Assembly (NCBI GenBank): GCA_015494395.1
Contig: WGBG01000180.1
Coordinates: forward strand, 10,329 to 74,328
DNA: 64,000 nt
Reading direction: 5' to 3'
Origin: Deltaproteobacteria bacterium
GTDB lineage: Bacteria > Desulfobacterota > Dissulfuribacteria > Dissulfuribacterales > QOAL01
The notes beneath the pieces are model-generated. The model was not told the origin of the DNA. It made no database searches and saw nothing but the letters and a program-made list of their open reading frames with translations. How positions within the stretch are numbered: the first letter of the stretch is position 1; each line of letters starts with the position of its first letter. A program made the position numbers and the translations under genes. Of the stretch, positions 9,054-30,620 are shown piece by piece.

Positions 9054-9643
9054 GCCGCCATTAGTACAGGTGAACTGTCCTCAGGTTTTACATATTTCAT
9101 TGGAACTTCCACCCTGACTCCCTGTCCAATGCACTCCACAGCAAGTTGCAGGTAGAACCTGTTTTTTTGTTTAATGACGGAACCGGAGAGCCCGGCCAGG
9201 GGGCCGTGGGTTATGGTAACTTTCTGGCCAGCAGTGAGAAAATCACATAATTCAACCTGCTTCTCTCTGTCAAGCATCTTTTTTATCATCTGAAGTTCTG
9301 TAGTCAGCCTTGCCTGGCCTGGTACTTCAATGACCTGGGCTACACGCCTGGTTCTTAAAACTGCAAGGCGGGATGCGATGTTGCCACGGAAAAAGATATA
9401 TCCGCTGAACAGAGGAACAACTGAGACACGCATTCTTTTTTTGCTTTTTTGCAGTCTGTGTATCAGAGGTAGGTAATATGGGATATTTTGATTAACAAGA
9501 GTCCAGGCAAGTGCTTTTTCTTGGCGGCTCCTGGTTTTTGCGACCCACCAAACATTTTCTTCATCGGACAGATTGTTGAGCAACAGTTGGAACAGGGCCT
9601 CGGGAAAGCAGGAGGGTGGATTTGCCGATGGATTAAGTGTCAT
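9050..9643 (-). CDS. NusG-like transcription antiterminator paralog (UpxY/RfaH-like, NGN + KOW)
   Basis: 197 aa. NGN-type start (WWVAKTRSRQEKALAWTLVNQNIPYYLPL) and a KOW-like GQKVTITHGPLAGLSGSV. It is the first gene of the polysaccharide operon behind a ~390-bp non-coding leader. Confidence 0.75.
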   Translation of the reverse strand: MTLNPSANPPSCFPEALFQLLLNNLSDEENVWWVAKTRSRQEKALAWTLVNQNIPYYLPLIHRLQKSKKRMRVSVVPLFSGYIFFRGNIASRLAVLRTRRVAQVIEVPGQARLTTELQMIKKMLDREKQVELCDFLTAGQKVTITHGPLAGLSGSVIKQKNRFYLQLAVECIGQGVRVEVPMKYVKPEDSSPVLMAA

Positions 9644-10033: not shown

Positions 10034-12145
10034 TCAGGAAGCAGCGATTTCTTGAAGCTGCTGTCTTAACTCAATGGCCTTATTCTTCTCAGGAAACGGG
10101 ACAGGTTGTTCAAGCGCCTTTTTGATTGCCTCAAGCGCAGCACTGTTCCTCCCGCTTTCCTTAAGCAGCACTGCCTGGTGATACAGCAGGGTAGGGTTGT
10201 CAGGGGATGCGGCAAGGGCCTGGTTGATGAGTTCAATAGCCTTTTCAGAATTGCCTGACCTGTATTCTATCCAAGCCAATGTGTCCAGAAATGTTGGTGG
10301 CGGGTTGTTAAGTCCTTTAAGTGCCTTATTTATGAGAGTGCGTGCCTCTTCAATCCTGGCTGGTGCAGAGTCTGCAATGAGAAATGCCAGATTGTTTAAA
10401 AGAATTGCTGAGTCTGGATGTTTTTTAATGAGATTTTCGTAAATTTCAATGGCCTTTTCTGGCTTGCCCGTCTGTTCATATAGGGAAGCCAGGAGGATTT
10501 TGGGGCCTGGCGCATCAGGGTATAGTTTGGCCGCCTCCTTAAATGTCTTTTCCGCCTCTGCAGGATCGCCTGCCTGAAGTTTCAGACTAGCAAGATTTCT
10601 GTAAGGTATGAGCCATTCAGGTTGCAGTTCCATGGCCTTTCTGAAATTTTTTTCCGCACCCTTAATGTCTCCTGCCTTCCACAGCAACATACCATTAAGA
10701 TTATATAGTGCTGCTGAATTTGGAATGTGTCCCATGGCTTCAGACACCACGCCTGATGCAGATGCAAGATCTTTTTGAGCAAGTTTCAGTTTTGTCAGGG
10801 CAATCCAGAGATTTTTATTCTCAGGGTGTTTCTTAATGGTTCTTCGAAGCTGGTCTTCAGCAAGTTTGAACTCGCCATTCATGGCGTGTGCCTGGGCAAG
10901 AAGCATCTGGAATGTGATATTATCAGGTTCTTCTTCAACAAGTCTTCGCAGTATGCTTACTGCCTGCTCACCATCTTTCTCCAAAAGCGCTATTTTTGCC
11001 TGAATGCTTAAAGCGGTAAGATCATTTGGATTTTCCTTAAACACCTCTTCTGTGATTTTAAGGGCCTTGTCCATCTTTCCGAGGCTAAGGTTGATACTTG
11101 CCTCTTCATCTAGCAAAGCTATGCGTTGGGGCTTTTCCAGTGAATCAGAGTAACCTGTTTCTAGAAGTTTTAGTGCTTCATCTCCCCGTCTGGTGCCGGC
11201 AAGAAGTTTTGCAAGGGCAACACGGAGTTTTATATCATCCTTTTTAAGGGTGAGCCTTTCTCTCAAGAATTTTTCAGCCTTCTCAATCTTCTTATTGTCG
11301 GCAAGGAACTGTGCATATCGTAGAAGGATATCTGTGTTCTCAGGAGCTGCTTTAATTGCCTTTTCCCACTGTTTTTCTGCATTTTCCAGGTCTCCCTTTT
11401 TTGCATAGAGCTGCGCAAGGGTGAGATATGAGGCAACAGGTGTGTTAGCGCCGGGTGCAGACTGGTAGTAGAGCTCTGCATAATGAATTGCCTTGTCCCA
11501 ATCGCCGGTAGCCGCATAGATTCCAATAAATGTTTGATATAAAGCGGATTTTTCCCGTACCTTTTTAATACCTGTTTCAAGTAGATGGAGTGCTTCCTGG
11601 TATTTTTTTTCTGATGCAAGGAGCCTTGCAGCCAGTGCGTAACCTTCAGGTTTGTCCGGATGGGAGGAGCGTACTTTTTCAAATTCCCTGTACGCCTCCT
11701 CTTTTTTGTTTTTCTGCATGGCGAGGGAGATGGCAAGTATAACCCTGGCATCAAAGTTGTCAGGCTCTTTCTCGAGGATCTCCCGGGCTATTTCTTCAGC
11801 CTTTTTACCTGCCCTGCCCATGATAAGTATTTTCCCAATCGCAATCTTTATCTCTATGTTATCCGGGGCAAGTTCAGATGCCTTTACAAATGCTGCGTAA
11901 GCGTCTCTGACATTCTTCAGTTCAAGCTCTACATTGCCAAGACGCTTCAGGCATTCAACACATTTTGGATCTACCTGCACAGCATTTTTGTACTCAAGCC
12001 TTGCCTTAATAAGGTCGCCGCTCTGTTCAAATTTCTGTCCATTTTCTAGAAAATTATTGCGTTTCTCTTCCGGGGAAGAACAAGAAGTGAGGCCTATAAC
12101 AGCAACTATGGAAAAAATATATAAAATTTTGGAAAACTTAGTCAT
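10034..12145 (-). CDS. PEP-CTERM system TPR-repeat lipoprotein (PrsT-like)
   Basis: TPR repeats run throughout. From ATG 12145 the N-terminus is MTKFSKILYIFSIVAVIGLTSCSS (lipobox LTSC), preceded by GAGGAGAG. The longer ORF to 12229 would overlap the upstream gene by 92 nt. Confidence 0.8.
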   Translation of the reverse strand: MTKFSKILYIFSIVAVIGLTSCSSPEEKRNNFLENGQKFEQSGDLIKARLEYKNAVQVDPKCVECLKRLGNVELELKNVRDAYAAFVKASELAPDNIEIKIAIGKILIMGRAGKKAEEIAREILEKEPDNFDARVILAISLAMQKNKKEEAYREFEKVRSSHPDKPEGYALAARLLASEKKYQEALHLLETGIKKVREKSALYQTFIGIYAATGDWDKAIHYAELYYQSAPGANTPVASYLTLAQLYAKKGDLENAEKQWEKAIKAAPENTDILLRYAQFLADNKKIEKAEKFLRERLTLKKDDIKLRVALAKLLAGTRRGDEALKLLETGYSDSLEKPQRIALLDEEASINLSLGKMDKALKITEEVFKENPNDLTALSIQAKIALLEKDGEQAVSILRRLVEEEPDNITFQMLLAQAHAMNGEFKLAEDQLRRTIKKHPENKNLWIALTKLKLAQKDLASASGVVSEAMGHIPNSAALYNLNGMLLWKAGDIKGAEKNFRKAMELQPEWLIPYRNLASLKLQAGDPAEAEKTFKEAAKLYPDAPGPKILLASLYEQTGKPEKAIEIYENLIKKHPDSAILLNNLAFLIADSAPARIEEARTLINKALKGLNNPPPTFLDTLAWIEYRSGNSEKAIELINQALAASPDNPTLLYHQAVLLKESGRNSAALEAIKKALEQPVPFPEKNKAIELRQQLQEIAAS

Positions 12146-13451
12146 GGTCTCTCCTCGTACTGAATATTTTTGAAAGAAGGGTCTTTCGTTGTTGGGATGA
12201 TGGCTCTTCCGCAGGGGGATCAAATTCACCTATGCTGTAAGGCTCAGGCTGAGATTCTTGCGCGATCTGCTGCTGTTCCACTTTACTCAGTAGCATTTTA
12301 AGCTTTTTTTGAAGATTTTTTCGGTCTGCCGCAAGGGAAATTACCTTTTTCTGTTCCCGGTCAAGCAGTTCTTTAAGTATCTTCTTGCTGGCAAGTTCTC
12401 TTATTTCCTCATGACTCTTGTCAATAAGCCTTTCGTTTACCAGCCTGCTTAATACCTGAACAGTTTTTTCAAGTTCTGAAACACGGTTTTGAAGATCAGA
12501 CAGCTGATCTGCCGAAAATCCCTGCATGGCAGGTCCTGCTTGATTTGCAGGTGCCTTTGGCGGTGGCACATCTCCAATATTCTCCCTGTTCGTGGCCGGT
12601 TGTTTTGCAAGAGACTGGGATGATGCGATCTGCCAGAAGTTACCAGCTCCGTCACCTTTTATAGTATCTGTCACAATACTCCTGGTTACTGGTTTAACCT
12701 GGTCGGCAAACGCATTTACCAGACACGCGTCACAAAGCAGGTTGATAAGACGCGGGAAACCAAGGGTCTGTGTGTATATCTCTTCCAGGGCATCCTCGGA
12801 AAAACAGGACCCTACGTCATCACAGCCTGAGACCTTTAGGCGGTGGGCAATGTATTCCTCTGTTTCCTTTTCGGTAAGGGGATTGATATGGTAGTGTACG
12901 GAGATTCGCTGTGCTAGCTGTCTTAAGGAGTGGTGAGTTAGTTTGTATTTTAGTTCCGGCTGTCCAACCAGAAAGATATGAACAAGATAGTCCTTGGTGG
13001 TCTGGAAATTTGAGAGCAGTCGTATCTCCTCAAGAGTTTCCATGGAAAGGTTCTGTGCCTCATCAACTATTAGTACCGCCTTTTTCCCCTTGGTATAGAT
13101 GTCGATGAGGAATGACTTGAGCTTATCAAGTTTCTGAGTATGGGTTTCGTTCTCGTTCCACGGAAGTTCATAATCATCAAGGATTAGGTTAAGAAATTCT
13201 TCTGCTCCAACTGTAGTATTGAATATTGATGCGACAACAGTATCCTCTGCCATGCGTCTGAGCATGGTCTTTACAAGAGTGGTTTTGCCTGTACCTATTT
13301 CACCGGTAATAACGATAAAACCTGCCTGGTGGCTAAGGCCATATTCCAGGTGGACAAGGGCAAGTTTGTGCTGCTGGCTTAAAAAGAGAAATTCCGGATC
13401 AGGAGGGAGTTTGAACGGGCACTCCTTGAGTTTGAAAAAAGATTCATACAT
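12138..13451 (-). CDS. PEP-CTERM/EPS-associated AAA ATPase (ExeA/GspA-like)
   Basis: Walker A (GEIGTGKTT) and Walker B (VLIVDEAQ). ExeA-like N-terminus MYESFFKLKECPFKLPPDPEFLFLS. Confidence 0.8.
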   Translation of the reverse strand: MYESFFKLKECPFKLPPDPEFLFLSQQHKLALVHLEYGLSHQAGFIVITGEIGTGKTTLVKTMLRRMAEDTVVASIFNTTVGAEEFLNLILDDYELPWNENETHTQKLDKLKSFLIDIYTKGKKAVLIVDEAQNLSMETLEEIRLLSNFQTTKDYLVHIFLVGQPELKYKLTHHSLRQLAQRISVHYHINPLTEKETEEYIAHRLKVSGCDDVGSCFSEDALEEIYTQTLGFPRLINLLCDACLVNAFADQVKPVTRSIVTDTIKGDGAGNFWQIASSQSLAKQPATNRENIGDVPPPKAPANQAGPAMQGFSADQLSDLQNRVSELEKTVQVLSRLVNERLIDKSHEEIRELASKKILKELLDREQKKVISLAADRKNLQKKLKMLLSKVEQQQIAQESQPEPYSIGEFDPPAEEPSSQQRKTLLSKIFSTRRDHD

Positions 13452-13603
13452 GGATTAATTATTGTTGGCTATATGAGGATTTTGATGGCAAGGGAGGTAC
13501 AGTAAGGCGGCAGTACCGTGAATTTTCAAAATTTGAGAATTCTAATTGCTGTAACTCCCTTTAATTTTAGCAAGAAAACCATGTTTTGAAACGCTGCTAC
13601 AGG
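13452..13603 (+). repeat. family B element, degenerate long-variant copy (B0), abutting the ATPase start codon
   Basis: Shares ttggctatatg..gg.., cagtaa..cggca, taactccctttaattt and gttttgaaacgct with the other B copies. The termini are degraded. Confidence 0.5.
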
Positions 13604-13612
13604 ATAAAGAAA

Positions 13613-13751
13613 CCTAGATTGAGCGATTGTCGGATATGCAGTAAATACGGCAATCCCGAAGGGTTTCAAAACTGGAAAGCTATAATTGACATAACTCCCT
13701 TTAATTTCATTGAAAAAACATTTTTTCAGATTTTGAAACGCTCAATCTAGG
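13613..13751 (+). mobile_element. family B MITE, short form (B1)
   Basis: Perfect 13-bp terminal inverted repeat CCTAGATTGAGCG / CGCTCAATCTAGG. Flanked by the 5-bp direct repeat AGAAA (13608..13612 and 13752..13756). Confidence 0.8.
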
Positions 13752-13782
13752 AGAAAGTTTTTTGATACGAATGCGTTTCAGG

Positions 13783-14667
13783 TCAATAACCCCTGTAATC
13801 ATAAGAAGGGCAGTATCGTGCCGGTACGCGGTTCAGTGCAATACCAAGAAGGTTTGTATGGCTTATCTCCTCCATTGCCTTGTCCAGTTCTTCCTCCTTG
13901 CTCTTGCAGCTTCTTACCACCATAAGGGCAGTATCTGCATAACGGGCAAGATAAAGACCGTCTGAAAAGAGATTAAGCGGCGGGCTGTCAAATATAACCA
14001 GCCGTTCAGGATAGCGGTTTTTTATGTCAGTGACAAAATCATGCATTGCCGGACTACCAAGGAGGTCCGCCGGGTAGTCTGAAGGGGTTCCGGCAGTAAG
14101 AATGGTGAGCCTTGGTATTCCGGGGTTTATAAGCAGCTCGTTTAGAGGTGTGCCCTTTGTGAGATGTTCAAACAATCCTGCCTCTGCCTCAATTCCCATA
14201 TATTTATGAATGGCAGGCTTGCGCATGTCTGCGTCAACCAGAAGGACTGTCCTGGATGTCTCCCTGGCAATACTTATGGCGAGGTTTATCGCAGTTATGG
14301 TCTTTCCCTCCTTGGGGCCAGGGCTGCATACCATAATGGATCTGGCATCATTTTCCTTCATGGCCGTCTCAATTTTCACCCTGAGCAGGTTGTACTGCTC
14401 TATAATTATTTCCGGACAATCTGTAGTGAGTATCCCGTGCTTTTCAAGCACCGCCTTGTCAGCCGGGGTTACCCTGGTCTGGGTGTACACAGGCTCTATG
14501 TGTCCCGGTCTTGCAGCACATGCTGTTTTGACCTTGGGTGTATCTTCAGCCTGTGTTTTCTGAGGCGCAGGTGTAACTGGTGTGGTTTCTTTAGTAGTTT
14601 CTGAAGCAGGGGAGTCCTCGCCGCGCGCCTGCTGTGCCATCTCCAGTGCCTTTTCTAGCTTGCTCAT
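13783..14667 (-). CDS. EPS/PEP-CTERM locus tyrosine autokinase (BY-kinase, CpsD/EpsG-like)
   Basis: Walker A (SPGPKEGKT), Walker A'-like VLLVDADMRKP, and a Tyr-rich C-terminal tail (YCPSYDYRGY). Confidence 0.8.
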   Translation of the reverse strand: MSKLEKALEMAQQARGEDSPASETTKETTPVTPAPQKTQAEDTPKVKTACAARPGHIEPVYTQTRVTPADKAVLEKHGILTTDCPEIIIEQYNLLRVKIETAMKENDARSIMVCSPGPKEGKTITAINLAISIARETSRTVLLVDADMRKPAIHKYMGIEAEAGLFEHLTKGTPLNELLINPGIPRLTILTAGTPSDYPADLLGSPAMHDFVTDIKNRYPERLVIFDSPPLNLFSDGLYLARYADTALMVVRSCKSKEEELDKAMEEISHTNLLGIALNRVPARYCPSYDYRGY

Positions 14668-14668
14668 T

Positions 14669-16300
14669 TTATTTTTTCCCTTTTACTTCGTCTGCATTCA
14701 ATATGGAAACCAGAGGTGACCGGCCAGTTATGCGTTTAATGTCTGCCGGTGTGCGAATGGTGGTGTCTGCCATTTCAACAATGGAGGCGATACCAATTCC
14801 TATGCCAATACCAAGCACCAAACCAATCAGAATAATCGCAATGCGGTTGGGTTTGACCGGTTTTTCAGGAAGCTGAGGAGGATCAATTACAGTGAATTTT
14901 TCACTTGCCTGGCGTTGTTCAAGTGTCTGCCCCTGCTTGGCCTCCATGAGTTTTGCAGTTATCTGCTTGTATTCTGCCTGCGCAGTCTCATAATCCCTGT
15001 TAAGTTCCCGGTATTCCCGCTCCACCTCAGGCATCTTTTCAAGCCGCTTTATGTATTCTTCCCATTTTTGGGTAAGGTCCTTCTTCCTTGCCTCAAGTCC
15101 TGCCAGTTCGATCTTGGCTGCCTTGATCTGTGTCTGAAGGTTGATGTAAGCCGGATTGTCCGGTTTGCCCACATAGGTTGAGCTTGAGGATGCCGAAGCA
15201 GGAAGAGATGCAATTTTTTTCTTAAGCTCGCTAATCTCCTGCTTGAGTTTTACAATGTCCGGATGTTTGTCTTTCAGGTCCGCGGATTTTTTCTTGAGGT
15301 CTTCCTCTTTGAGTTTCAGAAGGTCAATAAGCTCCTGCCTGTTCTGGGTATTTCCGACTTCCTTCTCAAGATTTGCAATTTCCTGCCTCAATTTGATCAG
15401 GTCAGGATGCCTGGGAGACAGGTTCGCCTCCATGCTTATCTCCTGGCTCCTCAGCATCTTTAGCTTTTGTACCGGATCGGTAATAATCTGGCCGGTAGGA
15501 CCCTGTACTGTGATGTCAGGAGACACTGTGGCAAGCTGTCCCTGAAGATAGACAAGGCGGTTCTTTGCCTGTCTGATCTGTGAGTCAATATCGTCAATCT
15601 GCTGCCGTAGCTGCCGTTCTGTCTGGAGGTTCAGCCCCATGAGTTCAGGCAGCTCAGTAATATGCTTTTGCTTGAATGCAGCAATTTTTGTCTCAAGCTC
15701 CTGTGTGCGTTTGCGGTAAACCTTTGCCTGGTCTTCAAGGAAGCTGGTGGCTGTCTGGGCAAGCTCTTCCCTCATCTTGAGGTTGTGTTCAAGGAAGAGA
15801 GAGGTAAGTCTGTTTGTTACCTGCATGACCTTCCTCGGGTCTGTGCCCTCAAAGGAGACTGTAAAGGCAACATTAACCGTAACTGCCCGACCACTTCTTC
15901 TGTCTGGTACTTCCGCACTGATCATCTCAACAGAGATGTCATCGCGCATCTTGTCAATAATTTCCTCTGTGGTGAGTTTTTCGCGTTCTTCCGGGTAGAG
16001 GTTAAAATCCTTGATAATTTTGAGAAGTACCTGTCTGCTAAGAATCTGTGCGCTGATTGCCTTGATGCGTTCTTCTGCAAAACCGGTAACAGTAGTACGA
16101 ACCAGGTCTTGGGGAACCTGCTGTGATTCAATGAGTATGGTGGATGATGAGCGGTAAACCGGCGGAAGGAGATAGGCTATGGCAACGGCTATGCCAACGC
16201 AGATGAAAAGCGGAAGCAGAATGTGCCATTTTCGCCTGTAAAGAAACTGTTTATAATCATCAAGAGTGGAAAAAGCTTCCTGGTTTTGTTCCTGTTTCAT
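14669..16300 (-). CDS. polysaccharide chain-length determinant protein (Wzz/PCP, PEP-CTERM locus subfamily)
   Basis: N- and C-terminal TM helices flank a long coiled-coil periplasmic region. The gene lies immediately upstream of the BY-kinase. Confidence 0.8.
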   Translation of the reverse strand: MKQEQNQEAFSTLDDYKQFLYRRKWHILLPLFICVGIAVAIAYLLPPVYRSSSTILIESQQVPQDLVRTTVTGFAEERIKAISAQILSRQVLLKIIKDFNLYPEEREKLTTEEIIDKMRDDISVEMISAEVPDRRSGRAVTVNVAFTVSFEGTDPRKVMQVTNRLTSLFLEHNLKMREELAQTATSFLEDQAKVYRKRTQELETKIAAFKQKHITELPELMGLNLQTERQLRQQIDDIDSQIRQAKNRLVYLQGQLATVSPDITVQGPTGQIITDPVQKLKMLRSQEISMEANLSPRHPDLIKLRQEIANLEKEVGNTQNRQELIDLLKLKEEDLKKKSADLKDKHPDIVKLKQEISELKKKIASLPASASSSSTYVGKPDNPAYINLQTQIKAAKIELAGLEARKKDLTQKWEEYIKRLEKMPEVEREYRELNRDYETAQAEYKQITAKLMEAKQGQTLEQRQASEKFTVIDPPQLPEKPVKPNRIAIILIGLVLGIGIGIGIASIVEMADTTIRTPADIKRITGRSPLVSILNADEVKGKK

Positions 16301-16331
16301 GATATGGATCCCTTGAACTATAAATGCTTAT

Positions 16332-17591
16332 TTAAAAGTTTAGGTGAAGATTGAAGTCCTTGATGTCTATCCTGAACATGATCCTGTTACGGTCCCTGTT
16401 GTTGTTATCATGTTCATTGTCATCAATATATTGATAGCTGTACTGGATGCCAACATCAATGTACCGGGTCAGTTGATATGTAAGGGTTGGAAAAACCGAG
16501 TACGTGTAGTAATCCTGGTCGTAGGTGAGGTTCTGGGACTTTATGTGGGATATAGCACCCCTGATTCTGCTTCTTAGCCTTTCTGTAAGGCGCCAGTTAA
16601 AAACAGTTGTCAGGTAGGAGCTTACCACAGGCTCTCCATAACTGCTGGGGGTGACTCTACGTTTGAAGTCTGCGTCTATATCTCCTCTGTCAAACAGCCA
16701 TTTCAGTTCAGCCTCGGCCACCCATCCCCAGTAGTGGTCATTTTGAGTTTCCGTGCGTGTATGAAAAAGGTAGTCTGTTCCTGTCCAGATAATTTCATCC
16801 ACCACAACAATATCTGTTTTTGCATCTGTGTAGTTGACCCCCCCAAGGGCCTTGACATACAGGCGTTCTGTGAAATTCCGTTCAAGGCCGAACATCAGGT
16901 CTGCACTGCGGTAGTCCCCTGTGTCAAAATTCATCTTGCCGATGTCAGGGCGTATAAAGAGCCTGGTCTTCTGGTCTGAAAACAGGTATGAGTAGTTTAT
17001 GTAAAAATAGAGGGTGTCATAATCCACGCTGCCGTGATGGTATTTGCCCCAGTCATAGTCAACCTTGTACCATGGTAATGAGGCAGAAACAGTACTTCTT
17101 TCCGTTAACTTCCACTCCACCTCCGGCGAGGCAGCATATACCAGCCGGTCCTGACGCCGTACAAGCTGTCCGGTTTCTGTGAGGGTCTGATCAAGGGTTG
17201 TGTCATCAGCAAATCTGCCAGTAAAAGAAAATGCCAGCCTTTCTGTCTGCTGTCTTCTGGCTGAAAGGTTAACATCCACGTCAAAGGTGTCCAAATCGTT
17301 TTCTGTGTTGTAATGTTGTCCTTGCCCATTGGTTTTGAGGTCAACCGTGTTTCTGGCATCCTGGTACTTTATATCAATGCCTGGGAGAATTTCATAAATC
17401 CAGTCGTCTATGGGCTTGCGTTTGGTGAAGATGATGTTGTCATCATAGGTCAGGCGGGTGCCAAGGGATGGCCTTATGGTGGTAAGCCCGGCCAGTGATA
17501 TCCGAGATTGGCCTGAAACAATCATAAAGGCAATGAAAAAAATTATTAATGTCTGGCTGGCCAAGTATTCTTTGGTGTAGGAATGGCGCAT
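16332..17591 (-). CDS. PEP-CTERM-associated outer-membrane beta-barrel protein
   Basis: Signal peptide, an alternating aromatic/hydrophilic beta-strand pattern rich in Y/D/T, and a terminal F. It sits between the export gene and the chain-length gene. Confidence 0.6.
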   Translation of the reverse strand: MRHSYTKEYLASQTLIIFFIAFMIVSGQSRISLAGLTTIRPSLGTRLTYDDNIIFTKRKPIDDWIYEILPGIDIKYQDARNTVDLKTNGQGQHYNTENDLDTFDVDVNLSARRQQTERLAFSFTGRFADDTTLDQTLTETGQLVRRQDRLVYAASPEVEWKLTERSTVSASLPWYKVDYDWGKYHHGSVDYDTLYFYINYSYLFSDQKTRLFIRPDIGKMNFDTGDYRSADLMFGLERNFTERLYVKALGGVNYTDAKTDIVVVDEIIWTGTDYLFHTRTETQNDHYWGWVAEAELKWLFDRGDIDADFKRRVTPSSYGEPVVSSYLTTVFNWRLTERLRSRIRGAISHIKSQNLTYDQDYYTYSVFPTLTYQLTRYIDVGIQYSYQYIDDNEHDNNNRDRNRIMFRIDIKDFNLHLNF

Positions 17592-17623
17592 GATTATATC
17601 ATCGTGGTAAAAGTTTAGTAAAA

Positions 17624-17642
17624 TCTAAATTGAGCGATTGTG
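17624..17642 (+). repeat. possible solo left terminus of family B (B2)
   Basis: tctaaattgagcgattgtg resembles the B left end cctagattgagcgattgtc. No right end is present. Confidence 0.3.
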
Positions 17643-17655
17643 AAACATACTCTAA

Positions 17656-18240
17656 TTACGGCACCAGAACAACGTCTCCACTTTGTAGTTCGATATTCTG
17701 TTCCAGATTTTTTCCACTTGCTATGTCATTGTAATCAAAATCTATTTTTGTTTCACCAGATGCAGTGTGACGAATTATTACAATGTCACTGAGGTCAGCA
17801 AATGGATTGGTGCCACCTGCCATACTCAGTGCCTGAAGTACGGTAACCCTTGGAAGCACTACGAACATCCCTGGTTTGTTGACCTTGCCTATTACATATA
17901 TCTTGTATGACTCAATTTTGACAGGGGTAACGGTAACAATTGGATTTGACATGTAGTCAGACAGGCGTTTAGTGATTTCCTGTCTTATTTGGGAAACTGA
18001 CTGGCCAGCTGCCTGTATTTCACCTATTAGAGGGAAACTTATGAAACCATCAGGCTGAACAATTATCTGTCTTGTGAGATCCTGATCCTTCCAAACAGAA
18101 ATTTCAATTACATCCCCCGGTCCTAGCTGAAAATCTTCTGTTTTAGAAGCAACTGCAGATGACGATGTTGATAAGACCATGACAGTTGTAAGAAGAAGGA
18201 TAAGTTTCCCAAGCAAGTACGATTGGCTGTTAGTGTTCAT
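17656..18240 (-). CDS. polysaccharide export protein (Wza/EpsE-like, PEP-CTERM-associated)
   Basis: Signal peptide, a poly_export-type block (YQLGPGDVIEISVW), and an SLBB-like C-terminus. A GGAGGG RBS precedes the ATG. Confidence 0.8.
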   Translation of the reverse strand: MNTNSQSYLLGKLILLLTTVMVLSTSSSAVASKTEDFQLGPGDVIEISVWKDQDLTRQIIVQPDGFISFPLIGEIQAAGQSVSQIRQEITKRLSDYMSNPIVTVTPVKIESYKIYVIGKVNKPGMFVVLPRVTVLQALSMAGGTNPFADLSDIVIIRHTASGETKIDFDYNDIASGKNLEQNIELQSGDVVLVP

Positions 18241-18353
18241 TTTATTTAACCCTCCAAGAAGTTAATATTAATGTATAATTATCTTATTATAAATCATAAT
18301 CTTTTTAAAATGAACTTAAAAATCATTCTTATAATTAAAATTCAAAGTAAATC

Positions 18354-18577
18354 GTATCTATTCAGCGTGATAAATGGTCTTGTTTTGGAGTGACTATGAA
18401 GAATCTCGTAGTTTTTATTAGCGAAGCGTAGTCATAAAATCGCGTCTATACTGAGAGTGGAACCAGTGAGTTCCTCGATTTTGGCTTAAGCGAGCCCTGG
18501 AAAATAAGAAATTATTCACTTGAGTGGAAAAACAAGACCTCTTACCAACTTTCGTTATTTATATGCTGAACAATTAC
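18354..18577 (+). mobile_element. family A MITE, full length (A1)
   Basis: Ends are GTATCTATTCAGCG..GGTCTTGTTTT and AAAACAAGACC..GCTGAACAATTAC. Perfect 8-bp target duplication AGTAAATC (18346..18353 and 18578..18585). Confidence 0.85.
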
Positions 18578-18763
18578 AGTAAATCATGGTTAGCTTAACT
18601 GTGACATGATCAAGCGATCATTCATGTTCCCTTTAGATACGAGGTTTGGGGACAGTTCTATTTTTTATACTATCGGAAAATATACTGATGACTGAAATAA
18701 AAATAGCACGAACTAAAATTGATGAGGAAATGGAAGGTAGGGGTGAAGTAAGGTTAGTCTAGA

Positions 18764-18794
18764 TAAAAAAAGGGGGATATAAAATCCCCCTTTT
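18764..18794 (-). terminator. Rho-independent terminator after the PEP-CTERM protein operon
   Basis: AGGGGGAT (18771..18778) pairs with ATCCCCCT (18784..18791) around a 5-nt loop. On the minus strand a 7-T run follows. It lies 20 nt downstream of the stop at 18812. Confidence 0.7.
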
Positions 18795-18811: not shown

Positions 18812-19390
18812 TTATGCTTTGCTTTTTTTAAATAATGCCAATCCTGCCAGACCAACGCCAAGCAGATAAATCGCTCCCGGAATTGGAACAGGCTGAGCGT
18901 CAACCTGAATCAGAAGGGCATCGAAACCGTACCAGGTTATGGCATGCTGTCCATATGCAGAGTCTAGTCCCAACGCATCGGCTACTGCTGTATTAAAACC
19001 TGGCAGCCAGCAACCACTTACTTTCATCGCAACCTGGAAGCGGTTGGACCCCTCAAGGATAACCCTTGGAGTATTGGGCATCCCTGCACGTCTTATGCCA
19101 AAGTCGTCTCCTACAGGTATTAACTCTATGCTATCCCATACTATGCCAAAGCCTGGATTGCCTTGAAGGATGAAATGGGGGTCGCTGTCCAGCAGGCTGG
19201 CCTGATCATCAAAGATTGCAATTTTGCCGTATATTTCATAGCCAGAATAGTTGATGTCAATGTTACCAGACTCTGTAGGCTCCCAAATGGTCCCTGGGCC
19301 CAATCCACCGCATGACGCAGATGCGCTGACAATCATTCCTGGAATGAGGAACAGCAGAGCTGACAGTACGGCTATACCTTTAATTTTCAT
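18812..19390 (-). CDS. secreted protein with PEP-CTERM-like (VPIPGA variant) C-terminal sorting signal
   Basis: Signal peptide. C-terminus is PVPIPGAIYLLGVGLAGLALFKKSKA (motif, TM helix, basic tail). AAGGAA RBS. Confidence 0.7.
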   Translation of the reverse strand: MKIKGIAVLSALLFLIPGMIVSASASCGGLGPGTIWEPTESGNIDINYSGYEIYGKIAIFDDQASLLDSDPHFILQGNPGFGIVWDSIELIPVGDDFGIRRAGMPNTPRVILEGSNRFQVAMKVSGCWLPGFNTAVADALGLDSAYGQHAITWYGFDALLIQVDAQPVPIPGAIYLLGVGLAGLALFKKSKA

Positions 19391-19422
19391 TTTTGTAATT
19401 CCTTAGTAAATCCATCTGATTC

Positions 19423-20010
19423 TTACTTGGTGGCTCTCTTCCGCGTTATGCCAAACAGCCCCAGAAGACCTGTTCCAAGCAGCCATACTGCGCCTGGGAT
19501 AGGAACGGCATTGCATGAATTTTTCAGGTGCCCTTCCGCGGCCAGATCACGGCCATGCAGCTCGAACACTTCGCTATTCTTTTCTCCCTGTACCATAAAA
19601 CTGTCATATGAGTCATACCATTTAACTTCTGCAGGACCATCAAACTGAAACGACGCTAGGGTTGTATCATCAGTAATGATGGCTGATCCCCATAATGCAG
19701 CCCCAGTGAATGCAACGAAAGGAGTACCTTCAGGTGTAACATCTTCATACATTGGCATTGGGAAAAGAGGGTCAGGAGGAGTTTCAGTCACATTGACTAT
19801 ATTCGCTCCTTCGTATGTAAACGCCAGCGTGTATGCGCCCAGATTCAGTGATTCTCCTGGATCTACACCCATAACAAAATCTACTGAATACTCATCAGCG
19901 CCGGGCATTATGTCAAACCATGAGCTTGCCAGTGCGCTGTTTACAATCATAAAAAGTAATGCTGTTAGAAGTAATGTTCCACTAAAAAATTTGTTAAATA
20001 AGCTTTTCAT
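19423..20010 (-). CDS. secreted protein with PEP-CTERM-like (VPIPGA variant) C-terminal sorting signal
   Basis: Signal peptide (..NSALA). C-terminus is AVPIPGAVWLLGTGLLGLFGITRKRATK. AAGGAGA RBS. Confidence 0.7.
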   Translation of the reverse strand: MKSLFNKFFSGTLLLTALLFMIVNSALASSWFDIMPGADEYSVDFVMGVDPGESLNLGAYTLAFTYEGANIVNVTETPPDPLFPMPMYEDVTPEGTPFVAFTGAALWGSAIITDDTTLASFQFDGPAEVKWYDSYDSFMVQGEKNSEVFELHGRDLAAEGHLKNSCNAVPIPGAVWLLGTGLLGLFGITRKRATK

Positions 20011-20037
20011 GTTAAGTCTCCTTGTTGGATGATATTT

Positions 20038-20805
20038 TTAGTTACAGCTTTGCAACCATTCGGTTTTAAGAATCAGGAAGTCACTCAGGTTGACTGTACC
20101 GTCACCATTTATGTCTCCTTCTTCATAAGTAACGCCTGATTGTAGCCAGTGAGTTTTGATTATCAGGAAGTCACTGAGGTTGACAGTACCGTCACCATTG
20201 ATATCAGCTTGCAGACTGCAAATCACTGCATAGCTTACACCGGAAAAAGTAACTGTAGAGTCCAGATCCTCTCCGGTTGTAGAGGCGAAGTTGACATAGT
20301 TTGGGTATGTCGTACGATCCTTGCCCAAAGATAAAGTTATGCCGAACAGGCTCTCTGGATCACTAACAGGCATGGTATTTGTAGCCCTTGTAAAAGTGAT
20401 TGTGCCAAGGAGAACCTTGTCGCCACTGACACCGGCTGTAGGATCACTGGTGTCAAGCTTTCCCCCGAGGATTACAACAGAATCGGTACTGATTTCAGGG
20501 TCTTTGTATGGATAATTGGTGCTGGAATCACCGAAATACCATACACTCTCATTTTTATCTGCAGATACTATAGATAACTCATCCGGGTTGAATGTTACCT
20601 TGATACATTGACTTACCACTGGCGTATCAAGTTGTGCGTAAATGTTCAGTATAAGTTGATCAGCATCATACGTACCTTCTGCAGAAACCAAGGTGGCGGC
20701 CGATGCAGTAGTTACGGTCCACGCCATCATTAAAGCGGGAATGATTATCGCTTTAAAAAATGACATTATGATTTTTTTTGTAACTTTTAATCCATTCACA
20801 TTCAT
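20038..20805 (-). CDS. secreted protein with two C-terminal dockerin-type repeats
   Basis: Signal peptide. Tandem DINGDGTVNLSDFLI(I/L)KT(H/E)WLQS calcium-binding dockerin repeats at the C-terminus. The N-terminal domain is possibly cohesin-like. Confidence 0.7.
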   Translation of the reverse strand: MNVNGLKVTKKIIMSFFKAIIIPALMMAWTVTTASAATLVSAEGTYDADQLILNIYAQLDTPVVSQCIKVTFNPDELSIVSADKNESVWYFGDSSTNYPYKDPEISTDSVVILGGKLDTSDPTAGVSGDKVLLGTITFTRATNTMPVSDPESLFGITLSLGKDRTTYPNYVNFASTTGEDLDSTVTFSGVSYAVICSLQADINGDGTVNLSDFLIIKTHWLQSGVTYEEGDINGDGTVNLSDFLILKTEWLQSCN

Positions 20806-20919
20806 ATGCCTCCTTATATTAAATTTGATAATTCCCTTTGTCCGTTACTCATGTACCTGAGTATAAACTGGAAACCTCCTTTCCTTAATCTTTAAATATT
20901 ACATTTTTTATCATATACA

Positions 20920-20934
20920 GCAAATAGTGTGCCG
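20920..20934 (-). promoter_or_regulatory. sigma-54 (-24/-12) promoter
   Basis: The minus strand reads tCGGCAC-ACTAT-TTGCTg, against the consensus TGGCAC-N5-TTGCW. It lies ~115 nt upstream of ATG 20805. Confidence 0.65.
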
Positions 20935-21128
20935 ATGAAATATCATAAAAAAACCTTAGTGAGACGTTTATAATATTGTTTTTTTGAAATATCTTTAGTT
21001 TTTATGAAAAAAAATACCCAGTATTTTTTTTCCATTTGCCATATCTTGGCCAGCGTCAATGCTACTTCTTTCTGTTTAGTTGTTGTTATTCCATGCAATA
21101 GGTCATTGTTTATTGAAGAGTACCCAAA

Positions 21129-22526
21129 TTAATTTCCAAATCGGCTGGCTAATAACTGAATATCCTGGTCATTAATTACCCAGTTATGGTCCAAATCGCA
21201 AGACGGATCATACCCATGGGCAGGCTGGGCATAAAACACCATGTTGGCCAGGTCGCTGCCATCAAAGTCCTGATCGTAGTCATGATCACCATTTGTCTCA
21301 ATGGTCCGAACAGCCCTGACAATCAGGTACGTCGTATCGAGTTTGTCAAAACTGCAAATTTGTCCCTTGTAAAGGTCAAGATAGAATGCTGTGGAATAAT
21401 CAATATTGTTATTTGTGTCTAATGAATATATCGTTGAAGATGTCCAAAACAATATAAAGTTGAAGGGGTCGGCCGGGTCATACCAGTAGGGTATGGAAAA
21501 TAGATCAGGGATTGCTGGATTAGTGGTGCTGTAATCAGCCAATGACTGCATCTCATTACGATTTGGTAGCCGCCAGTCAGTGTAGCCAGCTAAGTTTGAA
21601 GTCTCACAATACTCTAATGCTTGTTCCCAGGAATATGTTCCCCACTCCTCGGGTATGTCTTCACACTCACCTGTACTATTATTGTAGGTTTGGCCCATGT
21701 AGCACTTCTGCCACATCAGACTGGTTGAAACATCGGTAATTGTACCATCTCCATTATCAATAAACCTGCTCTGGGGTACAGGTTGTCCGCCGCGAACCGC
21801 CCTTACCCAGTGCCTGTCGGTCTTGAAATAGTTGTCATCAACACACCTGTTGCTGAAACATACATACCATGCCCAGGTAGGCTGATCTGCCGCAGTAGTG
21901 GCAGACCAATAGTTGTCTGATATAGTATTGGGAAAGAAATCTGCGTCCACCGCAGGGGCCTCATCTGATGCGCCAAGGTTTACAAGTGTGGAGAGTTCTT
22001 TGACTGTCGGCATGCGCCAGTCTGAAAAACCGCCGAAATTATCTTGGTTTAGCTTTGCAATAAAGGCTTCAGTGTCATCTTCTGCTGCAGGATCGGCACA
22101 CGCCCCTTGATCTCCGCCATTGGTATCTGGATTTGTATCACACCAGGTAAAGTTGTTGTCCTTGTCATGAATGGAACCGTCATCAGTTTTGACTTCCCAT
22201 ATGAGTCCGGTGACATTGTCCCGGGTCATTACCCAGCCATCTGCCAAAGTTGCATCGTCGGGAAGTTCAACTCCATTATAACCAAGTTTTGTGTAGGAAC
22301 GTAAACCATTATACTGGGCATCCTGTCCATGAAAGGCCTCCCCAGATGCAGGACACTCAATTTCACTTGAGTTGTTGTAACACTTGTTTTGGCCTGTATC
22401 TGGCCAGTAATTGAAGGCTGCCCCCGCGTTGTTTCCGGCAAATGCTGATGCAAAAAGGCCGGTCATGCAAATTGTACATAATAAGGTACATAATCGTAAG
22501 ATTAGCGATATGGTTATATGTCTCAT
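21129..22526 (-). CDS. secreted DUF1566 (Lcl C-terminal domain) repeat protein with dockerin-like C-terminus
   Basis: Two DUF1566-type blocks (DWRMPTVKELSTL, DWRLPNRNEMQSL). The C-terminus DLDHNWVINDQDIQLLASRFGN is dockerin-like. ATG 22526 is preferred because GGGAGGA lies 6 nt upstream; the ORF track starts at TTG 22532. Confidence 0.7.
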   Translation of the reverse strand: MRHITISLILRLCTLLCTICMTGLFASAFAGNNAGAAFNYWPDTGQNKCYNNSSEIECPASGEAFHGQDAQYNGLRSYTKLGYNGVELPDDATLADGWVMTRDNVTGLIWEVKTDDGSIHDKDNNFTWCDTNPDTNGGDQGACADPAAEDDTEAFIAKLNQDNFGGFSDWRMPTVKELSTLVNLGASDEAPAVDADFFPNTISDNYWSATTAADQPTWAWYVCFSNRCVDDNYFKTDRHWVRAVRGGQPVPQSRFIDNGDGTITDVSTSLMWQKCYMGQTYNNSTGECEDIPEEWGTYSWEQALEYCETSNLAGYTDWRLPNRNEMQSLADYSTTNPAIPDLFSIPYWYDPADPFNFILFWTSSTIYSLDTNNNIDYSTAFYLDLYKGQICSFDKLDTTYLIVRAVRTIETNGDHDYDQDFDGSDLANMVFYAQPAHGYDPSCDLDHNWVINDQDIQLLASRFGN

Positions 22527-22602
22527 CTTCAATCCTCCCTGAGCGCTTTTTAGCCGGATGGTTGGGCAATAACAGAAAAATAATACAACGGCAATACATC
22601 AA

Positions 22603-22617
22603 GCAATTAGTGTGCCG
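22603..22617 (-). promoter_or_regulatory. sigma-54 (-24/-12) promoter
   Basis: The minus strand reads CGGCAC-ACTAA-TTGCTt, differing at one position within the 15-bp core from the promoter at 20920..20934 (a second difference lies just downstream of TTGCT). It lies ~77 nt upstream of ATG 22526. Confidence 0.65.
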
Positions 22618-28315: not shown

Positions 28316-29035
28316 TTATGGTTCCTCCCCGTCCAGACGAAACCTGTAGCCTACTCCTGAATGGGTGATGATCAGACGGGGGCTTGATGGGTTGTCTTCT
28401 ATCTTCTGGCGAAGCCTTCTTATGTGTACGTCAATTGCCCGGCTCCACGGGTAAACCTCCTTGTCTTTCCAGAGTCTGTTACACAACTCTTCACGTTTAA
28501 CTACCTTGTTACAGTTTTCTACAAGGGTCAGCAGCAGCTCGAACTCCTTACGGGTGAGATTCACATGCTCTCCCCTGGCAGTCACTGTCCTCTGTTCAGG
28601 ATAGATGGTTATGTCACCTGCCTTTATCACCTGTTCTGTACGGGTTGTCTTGTCCCTGCGCCTGATACACGCCTTTATGCGTGCTGCAAGTTCCAGGAAT
28701 TCAAAGGGCTTGGTCATGTAGTCGTCAGCCCCCAGGTCAAGCCCCCGTATCTTGTCAGCAAGGCTCTCCCGTGCACTGAGGATTATAATCGGGATGTCAG
28801 ACAGCTTCCTCAAATGCTGGCATATTATCAGGCCATCAATGTCTGGCAGGGTGAGATCAAGAATGACAAGGTCCGGCTTAAAACTATCAAAAGCCTCCAT
28901 AGCCTCCTTGCCGGTTGACACACCCTTTGCCTCATAACCGTCCAGTGCAAGCTGATCCACAAGGACCTTTTGAATGTCCTGATCGTCCTCAACCACAAGT
29001 ATTTTCATTCCTTCCCTAGGTTCTCCCTCAATCAT
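28316..29035 (-). CDS. OmpR-family response regulator
   Basis: Receiver domain (KILVVEDD..DLVILDLTLPD) plus a winged-helix output domain (GVGYRF). Start is ATG 29035 (GGGGGA 8 nt upstream) or ATG 29008. The 29134 extension is rejected. Confidence 0.9.
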   Translation of the reverse strand: MIEGEPREGMKILVVEDDQDIQKVLVDQLALDGYEAKGVSTGKEAMEAFDSFKPDLVILDLTLPDIDGLIICQHLRKLSDIPIIILSARESLADKIRGLDLGADDYMTKPFEFLELAARIKACIRRRDKTTRTEQVIKAGDITIYPEQRTVTARGEHVNLTRKEFELLLTLVENCNKVVKREELCNRLWKDKEVYPWSRAIDVHIRRLRQKIEDNPSSPRLIITHSGVGYRFRLDGEEP

Positions 29036-30620
29036 TGAGATTGTCCCCCTGTTTGAAAACTGGTACAGTGAAATAAAAAATCGCCCCTTTGTCACCAACG
29101 ATTTTAAGGCCTGCTTCGCCTCTGTGAAGTTCAACTATTCCCTTGACTATTGAGAGGCCAAGCCCTAGTCCTTCCGGCCCCTTATACCGTCTGGACTGAT
29201 AAAATTTGTCAAAAATCGCCTCCCGCTCTGCCTCTGGAACTCCTTGTCCCTGGTCTGTTACGGATATGAGCCAGAAGGATGCATCTTCTGGTGTGGAAGA
29301 ATTGTCACCATGAATGTCTGTACAGGGCTCAAGCCGCACATTTATTGAAGAGTGCTCAGGAGAAAATTTTATTGCATTTGAAAGCAGGTTTGACATTACC
29401 TGTTCCATTCTTGCAGGGTCAATCATAGCCGGACAGTGATACTCAGGAACCTGGTAGTTTATTTCTATTTTTTTCTCCCAGGCCAGGGGCATGGCCATGA
29501 GGATGGTGTTTTCAATAAGTTCAGCTAGATCTATGGGCCTTAAGTCAAATTCCATTGAACCGCTGTCAAGCCTTGTACAGTCAAGCACGTCCTGAACCAT
29601 ACCTGCAAGTTTGGTGCAGTTTCGTTCAAGTATTTCTAGGTAAGGGTTGTCTTTGCAGAATTCAGTGTTTTTAAGGAGACTCAGGGCCCCTTTCATGGCT
29701 GTTATGGGGGTCTTGAGGTCATGGGTTATGTTGGTAAAAAAATCAGCCTTGTACTGCTCGGTTCGTTTAAGCTCATCGTACGCCTGTTTCATGCTTGAAA
29801 CAGCCTTTTCCACTTCTTCCTGTAAAACTGCCTGCTGTCTTGCAAGTTCCCGCACCATGGAGTTAAAGTTTTTTCCCACGGCCTTCCATTCTACTGAGCC
29901 CTGAAGATCAAGCCGCACATCAAGGTCCCCCTGCTGAACTCTGCTGGCTGCGGCATCAAGCTTCCCAAGTGGTTTGAGCACGAACCGGTTTAAGAGTATC
30001 CAGAGGATAACCATAAGTAGCCCGAATGCGCCTGTCAGGTAGAGGGCGGCATAGAGGCTTTTTTGTTTAAGGGTACTGAAAAAACGCTCTGCGTCATGAA
30101 GGCTTACAGTTATGCAGCCTATGATTCCTGTTTTTTTCTTTTCAGCGTGGCAGGATGTGCAACCTGCATCAAATACAAGCGGGCCGGCATATCTGAATAC
30201 AGGCCTGCCATCTGCTTCGGTAACATCCCAGAGTTCCCGGACACCCTTGTTTTTCATAAGGCTGATGGCCTTTTGTTCAAATGGATCAGGTGCATGATCC
30301 GGGTCAACATTGCCATCCAGTGCCAGTTTTATGGAAAATGGTGCGTGTTTTTTCTGGCCCAGGTCTGCAAGTGCCTTGGTAAAGCCTGAGGGGGTCTTGC
30401 GCTGGAATTGATTGTCCTTACGAACATACACCCCCTTCCACTGGGAGATTAACTGCCGGGTCAGCACGATGTAGTGATAAATCCCCCTGGCCTCAAGCTT
30501 CATCTGTTCCATCACCGCCCTCTTTTCATGATGGTTTTGCCATGCCATGAATATTCCTGCAAAGATCAGGTTTAGTAAGAGCAGGATTAAGAAAAGTTGT
30601 CTGTTAAGGCTTGAGGGCAT
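29028..30620 (-). CDS. sensor histidine kinase with periplasmic CXXCH-containing (DUF3365/Tll0287-like) domain and HAMP
   Basis: Two TM helices bracket a ~160-aa periplasmic domain containing CTSCH (30147..30161). These are followed by a HAMP domain, the H-box FFTNITHDLKTP, and the HATPase N/G boxes. Confidence 0.85.
   Translation of the reverse strand: MPSSLNRQLFLILLLLNLIFAGIFMAWQNHHEKRAVMEQMKLEARGIYHYIVLTRQLISQWKGVYVRKDNQFQRKTPSGFTKALADLGQKKHAPFSIKLALDGNVDPDHAPDPFEQKAISLMKNKGVRELWDVTEADGRPVFRYAGPLVFDAGCTSCHAEKKKTGIIGCITVSLHDAERFFSTLKQKSLYAALYLTGAFGLLMVILWILLNRFVLKPLGKLDAAASRVQQGDLDVRLDLQGSVEWKAVGKNFNSMVRELARQQAVLQEEVEKAVSSMKQAYDELKRTEQYKADFFTNITHDLKTPITAMKGALSLLKNTEFCKDNPYLEILERNCTKLAGMVQDVLDCTRLDSGSMEFDLRPIDLAELIENTILMAMPLAWEKKIEINYQVPEYHCPAMIDPARMEQVMSNLLSNAIKFSPEHSSINVRLEPCTDIHGDNSSTPEDASFWLISVTDQGQGVPEAEREAIFDKFYQSRRYKGPEGLGLGLSIVKGIVELHRGEAGLKIVGDKGAIFYFTVPVFKQGDNLND

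Follow-up and report, generated by a model that had tools for sequence, protein, structure and literature searches.

The stretch analysed here (the window, 64 kb in full) comes from a metagenome-assembled genome (MAG) of an uncultured member of the Desulfobacterota, and the subject of this report is a set of four minus-strand genes, A, B, C and D, all present and co-oriented where an earlier sequence-only reading had placed them (Table 1). Together they encode a secreted protein with a cohesin and a dockerin (B), a lectin-like protein that ends in a dockerin-like tail (A), and two small proteins with sorting-type tails (C and D), next to genes of a polysaccharide locus. None of the four proteins has a name in public collections. 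A UvrD/PcrA helicase gene lies upstream of the set, and a copy of B at 96% identity is found on JALWJV010000069.

Modules of the four proteins

Type-I dockerins consist of tandem repeats of about 22 residues, each made of an EF-hand-type calcium loop and a helix, and cohesins are nine-stranded jelly-roll beta-sandwiches of about 140 amino acids (aa). Protein B starts with a signal peptide and carries both modules. Its residues 200-248 match Pfam Dockerin_1 (PF00404) at 46.9 bits (E 3e-12, cut-off 22.9), and the same region matches solved type-I dockerins in the PDB (1daq, E 3.8e-6; 2mte, E about 4e-6). The two 21-residue repeats are identical at 19 of 21 positions, and the pair of dockerin repeats that the sequence-only reading had pointed out at 20038-20200 is borne out by these matches. 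Against Pfam Cohesin (PF00963), the N-terminal domain scored 20.8 bits, just under the cut-off of 24.1. An AlphaFold model of B made with 21 homologues reached a pLDDT of 84, with most of the cohesin part at 86-95. When this model was searched with Foldseek, cohesins made up all 50 of the 50 PDB matches listed, with a probability of 1.0 and TM scores (normalized to the target) of up to 0.71. Among the matches listed are 6kge_A (TM 0.71), 5lxv (Ruminococcus flavefaciens ScaC) and 2xdh (Archaeoglobus fulgidus, non-cellulosomal), and they span type I, II and III cellulosomal cohesins as well as the non-cellulosomal Archaeoglobus one. The searches with cohesin and dockerin profile hidden Markov models (HMMs) that had been proposed with the sequence-only reading thus gave, for B, a dockerin above its cut-off and a near-miss for the cohesin, the predicted fold of which is that of a cohesin. 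Within the family, the conserved cohesin motif is KNE.VWYFGD...Y.DPE, and conservation is strongest in an aromatic-rich loop. B also scored 18.9 bits against NCBIfam NF041540 (GC-type dockerin domain-anchored proteins), under the 29-bit cut-off. Altogether, B is a bona fide secreted protein with one cohesin and one dockerin, free of any anchor.

Protein A matches Pfam Lcl_C at 176 bits in two stretches and is weakly similar to the adhesins Lsa25, FimD and Lcl; a sequence search for a solved homologue found none. Translation of A likely starts at the ATG at 22526, which is preceded by GGGAGGA, while the open reading frame (ORF) list begins at a TTG at 22532. Public gene calls differ on this start, giving either 445 aa or 465 aa, and the signal peptide is complete only in the 465-aa form.

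The tail of A contains two EF-hand-type, D-rich loops of 12 residues, DHDYDQDFDGSD and DLDHNWVINDQD, which are 30 residues apart, and it can be aligned end to end with the profile of B-family dockerins, at just 8.6 bits. Similar tails, with the motif D.D.DGDVDG.DL...(C)...FAA.FGR, end large secreted proteins, one to four per locus, in most of the loci that have a B homologue. The bodies of these cargo proteins consist of right-handed beta-helix/NosD, CBM96, disaggregatase repeat (Disaggr_repeat), fn3, FG-GAP, CarboxypepD_reg and PA14 domains and, in locus L013, of Lcl_C; no glycoside hydrolase family was detected by a domain scan of the cargo proteins of other loci. In an alignment of 13 tails (that of A and 12 cargo tails from other loci), positions D7, D11, D13, D15, G16, D18, F56 and G57 are invariant. 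The tail of A departs from the others by an insertion that restores the second calcium loop, and a similar two-loop version is found in L023. A tail HMM built without A and run on the 794 six-frame ORFs of the window had a single significant match, the C-terminus of A (E 4.6e-4); the runner-up had an E of 0.65. Searched against the PDB, the tail-family profile found the dockerin 6kg9_A as its best match (E 2e-4), and two related dockerin variants of Clostridium acetobutylicum, 6kge_D and 6kgc_B, came next, at E about 1e-3. Two weaker matches, 5lxv_B (E 0.14) and 2vn5_B (E 0.22), do not reach significance, and a flagellin-hook protein is ranked between them.

Two of six cargo tails scanned with Pfam Dockerin_1 were matched, one of them above the cut-off (23.0 bits), and one cargo tail reached 16.5 bits with NF041540, under the 29-bit cut-off. 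No curated model describes the tail among those of Pfam and NCBIfam with which the cargo tails were scanned. The tail of A belongs to this family, solved dockerins are the best PDB matches of the family profile, and one member passes the Pfam cut-off. From these sequence comparisons, we conclude that the tail of A is derived from a dockerin, has diverged, and represents a distinct family that lacks a curated model. The single dockerin-like segment proposed earlier for A thereby holds as to its dockerin-like nature, recognized by the family profile, but it has two loops and is not matched by Pfam Dockerin_1. In the single-loop cargo tails of L011, L014, L019 and L020 (for example, L020:11276-13777), a Cys often directly precedes the calcium loop and a second one precedes the FAA.FGR helix. 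Such a pair suggests a disulfide staple in place of the lost second EF-hand.

Proteins C and D both end in VPIPGA followed by a hydrophobic helix and a K/R cluster, an ending found only in these two of the 140 window ORFs of at least 80 aa, and the tripartite architecture is invariant among their relatives. The tail motif, VPIP[GS]A, is closest to that of VPLPA-CTERM, which is an XrtD-type signal. XrtD has already been noted in genomes of related sulfate-reducing bacteria (SRB). The best NCBIfam match of C is floc_PepA, at 32 bits and below its cut-off. For the ectodomain of C (about 138 aa), only three relatives were found among 5.8 billion clusters, and a second search for homologues with the ectodomain profile found nothing further. 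With these three homologues, AlphaFold gave a low-confidence model (pLDDT 39.9) that is predicted to be all-beta. D belongs to a family for which an exhaustive phmmer search returned 30 representatives of 158-220 aa and two longer ones, with the motif TIW.PT.SG.IDINY..FAIFDD...DAQPVPIPGA. Comparison of D with cohesins by hhalign gave 22.8%, over a span of just 10 columns; no similarity of the D family to cohesins was found by profile, nor any sequence match in the PDB.

Table 1. Features of the four-gene locus and its surroundings, in window coordinates
Feature	Position	Strand	Description
Gene A, secreted, 465 aa	21129..22526	minus	two Lcl_C/DUF1566 lectin-like domains and C-terminal dockerin-like tail
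A tail, 58 aa	21132..21305	minus	loop 1 at 21252-21287, Cys, loop 2 at 21162-21197, terminal helix ...LLASRFGN
Gene B, secreted, 255 aa, cohesin-dockerin adaptor	20038..20805	minus	without membrane anchor or sorting tail
B cohesin module, residues ~37-195	20221..20697	minus	AlphaFold and Foldseek
B type-I dockerin, residues 197-255	20041..20217	minus	two near-identical repeats, DINGDGTVNLSDFLI[IL]KT[HE]WLQ; Pfam Dockerin_1
Gene C, 195 aa	19423..20010	minus	27 nt downstream of B; signal peptide, orphan ectodomain and sorting-type tail
C ectodomain	19510-19926	minus	orphan, predicted all-beta
C tail	19426-19509	minus	VPIPGAVWLLGTGLLGLFGITRKRATK
Gene D, 192 aa	18812..19390	minus	PEP-CTERM-type small family; tail at 18815-18895
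Sigma-54-type -24/-12 element before A	22603..22616	minus	GGCACACTAATTGC; 71 nt upstream of the listed TTG of A, 77 nt upstream of the likely ATG
Sigma-54-type -24/-12 element before B	20920..20933	minus	GGCACACTATTTGC; 115 nt upstream of B
Intrinsic terminator	18768..18794	minus	11-bp stem and T-run, 18 nt past the D stop
XrtA/PEP-CTERM-type polysaccharide genes	10034..18240	minus	best NCBIfam matches

Conservation and divergence of the gene module

About 20 homologues of B were found, which belong, where named, to Desulfobulbaceae, Desulfobacteraceae or Deferrisomatales, and a genome scan gave 12 loci, all from Desulfobacterota except for one partial match in Omnitrophota. Hosts include the cultured Desulfosarcina variabilis Montpellier and Desulfosudis oleivorans. 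Directly downstream of the B homologue, a small tailed protein is encoded in 14 of 15 evaluable lineages (leaving out one truncated locus). These 14 are the window and 13 further lineages (L003, L006, L007, L009/L014, L011, L013, L015, L017, L018, L019, L020, L022 and L023), of which L018 is Desulfosarcina variabilis and L020 Desulfosudis oleivorans; L001 and L010 are of the window's own lineage. The downstream protein, of 156-238 aa, starts with a signal peptide and ends, after its ectodomain, in a tail of the form [VTI]P[IV]P..LL.G.GL...RR; its gene usually lies 20-50 nt away. Genomic contexts vary, two lineages having the module beside Wzz, kinase and ATPase genes of exopolysaccharide (EPS) production and others among housekeeping genes. 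Between the ectodomains at the position of C, neither all-against-all BLAST nor profile comparison found any mutual similarity beyond close relatives. The sole exception to the arrangement, L016, has a B homologue without dockerin and no tailed neighbour. The observation is non-random, and on this genomic evidence the set is a conserved gene module that recurs in the Desulfobacterota.

In the same exceptional locus (L016:9995-10657, from a Desulfosudis oleivorans MAG), the cohesin is followed by a Pro/Thr-rich linker and by the ending ...CFISTAFGK, similar to the helix with which the cargo tails terminate. In a Candidatus Omnitrophota MAG (L021:3866-6649), a 927-aa protein contains a segment that is 40% identical to the core of the B cohesin (residues 34-138). 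By homology, a B-type cohesin is also embedded in a large protein outside the Desulfobacterota.

The modules of the B family diverge at different rates. Mean pairwise identity is 52% for the cohesin and 36% for the dockerin, and falls to 22% at the 13 non-coordinating positions of the dockerin repeats. Within one protein, the two repeats are 72-75% identical, against an identity of 0.39 between proteins. Dockerins that have dual binding modes and track a protein partner particular to the lineage typically show such symmetry between their repeats. The same contrast is seen over a short distance in L001 (GCA_054011955.1), a close relative in which neighbouring genes are 95-98% identical to those of the window: the B cohesin is 96% identical, the B dockerin 80%, the C ectodomain 69% and the D ectodomain 95%. 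Two dockerin substitutions relative to L001 (T to R and L to M) are the same in both repeats.

A sliding-window comparison with L001 gave one contiguous trough of identity, at 19675-20340, which runs from the start of the B dockerin through the C ectodomain and in which nucleotide identity falls to 61% at its lowest, in a region that is otherwise 95-100% identical; a smaller dip lies over the tail of A. Along the dockerin-to-C tract, where synonymous divergence peaks, the synonymous rate (dS) is raised as much as the non-synonymous rate (dN), with a dN/dS of 0.15-0.18. Positive selection was considered as the cause of this divergence and rejected, given the low dN/dS and high dS. Since dS is raised in parallel with dN, the tract looks like a recombined or exchanged cassette, or an older tract, rather than one under positive selection.

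In L001, gene A itself (L001:7544-8883, syntenic to window 21129-22526) is split into ORFs of 220 aa and 141 aa by a frameshift in the first Lcl_C region. There, A is either a pseudogene or an assembly error, and B, C and D are intact.

A possible display system and its rivals

The only demonstrable cohesin of the locus sits in B itself, and B is therefore regarded as an adaptor, rather than as an anchored scaffold. Tentatively, the locus can be read as a three-tier display system, cellulosome-style and non-cellulolytic, in which a cargo tail would sit on the cohesin of B and the dockerin of B on an exosortase-sorted C. The conserved cohesin of B would capture the conserved dockerin-like tail of the cargo, which here would be A and elsewhere beta-helix, CBM96, fn3, FG-GAP and Lcl_C proteins. 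The fast-evolving, internally symmetric dockerin of B would bind the equally fast-evolving ectodomain of the downstream C, so that a variable dockerin and its variable partner would be inherited together. An exosortase would sort C to the cell surface or to the EPS matrix, with D as a putative second substrate. The outcome would be a calcium-dependent, strain-specific tethering of carbohydrate-binding or -modifying proteins to the matrix. Who binds whom has been proposed in this way because a conserved cohesin is paired with a conserved tail, and a variable dockerin with a variable neighbour, which is suggestive but not proof.

The sequence-only reading had envisaged an anchor-plus-dockerin matrix scaffold; the cohesin-dockerin protein B, the dockerin-like cargo, the exosortase-type tails and the EPS context agree with it in outline, except that the demonstrable cohesin is that of B, with none detected in C. 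A bolder version of the proposal, which we consider doubtful, is that many Desulfobacterota share an undescribed form of surface display, built of an exosortase-sorted hypervariable receptor, a cohesin-dockerin adaptor and matrix-active cargo with a reduced, often single-loop and disulfide-stapled tail, where dockerin and receptor would form a matched specificity cassette swapped by recombination between strains. If so, it would imply strain-specific wiring of the matrix, and possibly kin or partner recognition.

Several points weigh against the three-tier proposal. No exosortase gene was found in the window or in the 10 kb past its left edge, so that the exosortase link rests on the architecture of the tails and on the neighbouring XrtA-associated genes. 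With VPLPA-CTERM (TIGR03370), C scored 16.9 bits and D 16.0 bits, against a cut-off of 25.35; with PEP-CTERM (PF07589), neither was matched, and positional analogues of C reached 14-17 bits, against a cut-off of 20.7. The PEP-CTERM-like tails suggested earlier for C and D are thus present as a tripartite architecture, but fall short of the curated cut-offs. C had no match to Pfam Cohesin, hhalign of C with the B family gave a probability of 4.5% (about 0% once 13 positional analogues were included), and no sequence was found in the PDB with the C profile. Of the two N-terminal domains thought at first to resemble cohesins, that of B has therefore been confirmed by its model and Foldseek matches, and that of C has not. 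If C were the receptor for the dockerin of B, it would be a cryptic cohesin, or a non-cohesin with little precedent. On the cargo side, the tail of A has no match to Pfam Dockerin_1 at E<=10, and most cargo tails have one calcium loop, compared with two in canonical dockerins. Moreover, linkage alone, without interaction, could yield the shared divergent tract, and in a diderm A and B would have to pass the outer membrane, for which the proposal offers no route.

It is also conceivable, although in our view unlikely, that the four are co-regulated extracellular or EPS proteins that do not bind one another. Their dockerin-type tails would then be calcium-stabilized or EPS-bridging modules, or dock to cohesins encoded elsewhere, and the cohesin-fold domain of B would bind carbohydrate in the manner of a carbohydrate-binding module (CBM). 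The lack of a detectable cohesin in both C and D agrees with this, as do the weak similarity of C to PepA, a floc protein associated with EPS (32 bits), and the aromatic-rich loop of B (KNE.VWYFGD..NY.Y.DPE), which would also suit glycans. A passage in PMC5244752, citing Peer 2009, describes the role of non-cellulosomal cohesin and dockerin modules as generally unknown. However, B and a tailed protein are adjacent in 14 of the 15 lineages despite differing contexts, and the neighbour is gone where the dockerin is gone. In addition, repeat symmetry kept amid divergence between lineages would be expected of a dual-mode, protein-binding dockerin, and not of a generic calcium module.

Cohesin and dockerin are known to occur together in one protein among cellulosomal adaptors and non-cellulosomal proteins, and their presence on one chain of B would also allow its dockerin to bind the cohesin of another B, or its own, leading to head-to-tail chains or to auto-inhibition, with C and D as unrelated exosortase substrates. 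This seems improbable, since cohesin and dockerin evolve at rates (96% versus 80% identity to L001; 52% versus 22-36% in the family) unlike those of the two faces of one interface, and the conserved downstream partner and the cargo tails would be left unaccounted for. Hardly more credible is the original idea that C, and perhaps D, is a very divergent bona fide cohesin anchored by exosortase, so that both steps would be canonical pairs. The size of the C ectodomain and its all-beta, low-confidence model would fit, loose motifs (G..F.[IVF] and G.L.T..F) occur among the positional analogues, one distant relative of the tail has a weak Pfam Cohesin match (15.4 bits), and the sortase-anchored cohesin ScaE would be an analogy; the hhalign and PDB results for C given above speak against it, as does the finding that seven positional analogues have no match to Pfam Cohesin at E<=5.

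Cellulosomes are built of dockerin-bearing plant-cell-wall glycoside hydrolases and a multi-cohesin scaffoldin with a CBM. A true cellulosome was considered here and rejected: B has a single cohesin, there is no multi-cohesin scaffoldin, the cargo is an Lcl_C protein here and shows no glycoside hydrolase family in the other loci scanned, and the genes lie in an EPS locus. A closer analogy is offered by R. flavefaciens, in which ScaC (an adaptor with cohesin and dockerin) and ScaE (a cohesin with LPXTG) would correspond to B linking dockerin-bearing cargo to a protein with a sorting signal. The best fold matches of B include the ScaC cohesin complex 5lxv, the dockerin chain of which, 5lxv_B, also appears in the search with the tail profile. 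The differences are that the host is a diderm of the Desulfobacterota and not a Firmicute, and that the sorting signal is of the PEP-CTERM/VPLPA type (exosortase) instead of LPXTG (sortase), on a proposed anchored partner without detectable cohesin. Moreover, the cargo is lectin-like, beta-helix or CBM96 in an EPS locus, instead of plant-cell-wall hydrolases, and the calcium loop is single in most cargo tails.

Non-cellulosomal cohesin and dockerin modules are known in all domains of life, including adhesins of anaerobic methanotrophic (ANME) archaea and syntrophic SRB (PMC9012536, PMC10553843), and syntrophic SRB of the Desulfobacterota are reported to carry and express such modules as adhesins (PMC10553843). 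The locus resembles these in its non-cellulolytic host and presumed role in adhesion or the matrix, and the A. fulgidus cohesin 2xdh is a fold match of B. The same reports list domains, and not a module of cohesin-dockerin adaptor, exosortase-tailed partner and tailed cargo. The SRB families of PMC10553843 are said to have no close homologues in other Desulfobacterota, whereas the B family is found in free-living Desulfosarcina and Desulfosudis. A curated precedent in non-cellulolytic bacteria is given by the GC-type dockerin domain-anchored proteins of NF041540, whose C-terminal dockerin is thought to anchor them; B and the cargo tail score under that cut-off, and the tail family described here often has a Cys pair.

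Known PEP-CTERM/exosortase systems (Haft 2006; Zoogloea and Aquincola pepA, PMC9850573) share with this locus small secreted proteins that have a Pro motif, a transmembrane helix and a basic cluster, adjacent XrtA-associated EPS genes and -24/-12 promoters in front. Unlike in those described, the motif of C and D is nearer to VPLPA-CTERM, under the cut-offs, and is linked to a cohesin-dockerin protein. A literature search found no paper joining cohesin or dockerin with PEP-CTERM; exosortase was mentioned together with them just incidentally.

Abundant cohesins and dockerins are found in organisms other than cellulolytic bacteria, among them sulfate reducers and methane-oxidizing consortia, yet next to nothing is known of their partners and anchoring. 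The four-gene locus offers a compact hypothesis on partners and attachment, and a homologous locus is available in the cultured and fully sequenced Desulfosarcina variabilis. If the proposal is true, PEP-CTERM/exosortase sorting would be joined to non-cellulosomal cohesin-dockerin binding, two widespread and poorly understood systems. In the bolder version, this would be an exosortase counterpart of sortase-anchored cellulosomes and a first functional context for non-cellulosomal dockerins in diderms. The proposal would also provide a new, short cargo-addressing tail for annotation, and orthogonal cohesin-dockerin pairs for protein engineering.

Promoters and neighbouring polysaccharide genes

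The pattern GGCAC-N5-TTGC occurs at exactly two sites in the 64 kb, both on the minus strand and oriented toward A and B; the chance expectation of two such sites anywhere in the window is 25%. The sigma-54 link put forward in the sequence-only reading is thus supported at the level of motifs, with one site upstream of A and one upstream of B. The syntenic relative L001 has kept the element before A, which is located there at 7393. In L001, L003, L010, L011, L019 and L020, elements of this type precede the B homologue by 70-210 nt, and in two more loci they are farther upstream, and sigma-54-type sites are present in about half of the related loci. No terminator-like site was found between B, C and D. 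With a terminator past D and elements before A and before B, the transcription units are therefore taken to be A alone and B-C-D. RpoN-dependent PEP-CTERM genes beside exosortase-type EPS loci provide a precedent (PMC9850573). The window ORFs scanned included no PrsK/PrsR and no enhancer-binding protein of another kind, nor was any found within 10 kb past the left end. Upstream, window 28316-30620 encodes a response regulator of the OmpR type together with a histidine kinase whose sensor domain is Tll0287-like, with synteny in L001; the regulator is not the NtrC-type PrsR that would be expected to activate sigma-54 promoters.

Directly downstream of D are genes for an export protein (TIGR03027), an outer-membrane protein (TIGR03016), a chain-length determinant (TIGR03007), a tyrosine kinase (TIGR03018) and an ATPase (TIGR03015), and the run also includes a gene for a PrsT-like tetratricopeptide repeat protein (TIGR02917). 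Most of these best NCBIfam matches fall just short of the equivalog cut-offs. Genes for sugar modification come after this XrtA-type polysaccharide run. For the asparagine synthase of L024, TIGR03108 is the best match after a generic model, below its cut-off.

The EPS locus also encodes an antiterminator of the UpxY/RfaH family (window 9050-9643) and a NeuB-type synthase (sialic, legionaminic or pseudaminic acid-like) with extra domains (6539-8515), the latter of which hints at a polysaccharide that contains nonulosonic acid. Between the terminator of D and the export gene, about 350 of the 570 intergenic nt (window 18257-18632) are absent from L001; this segment is AT-rich and has no obvious ORF.

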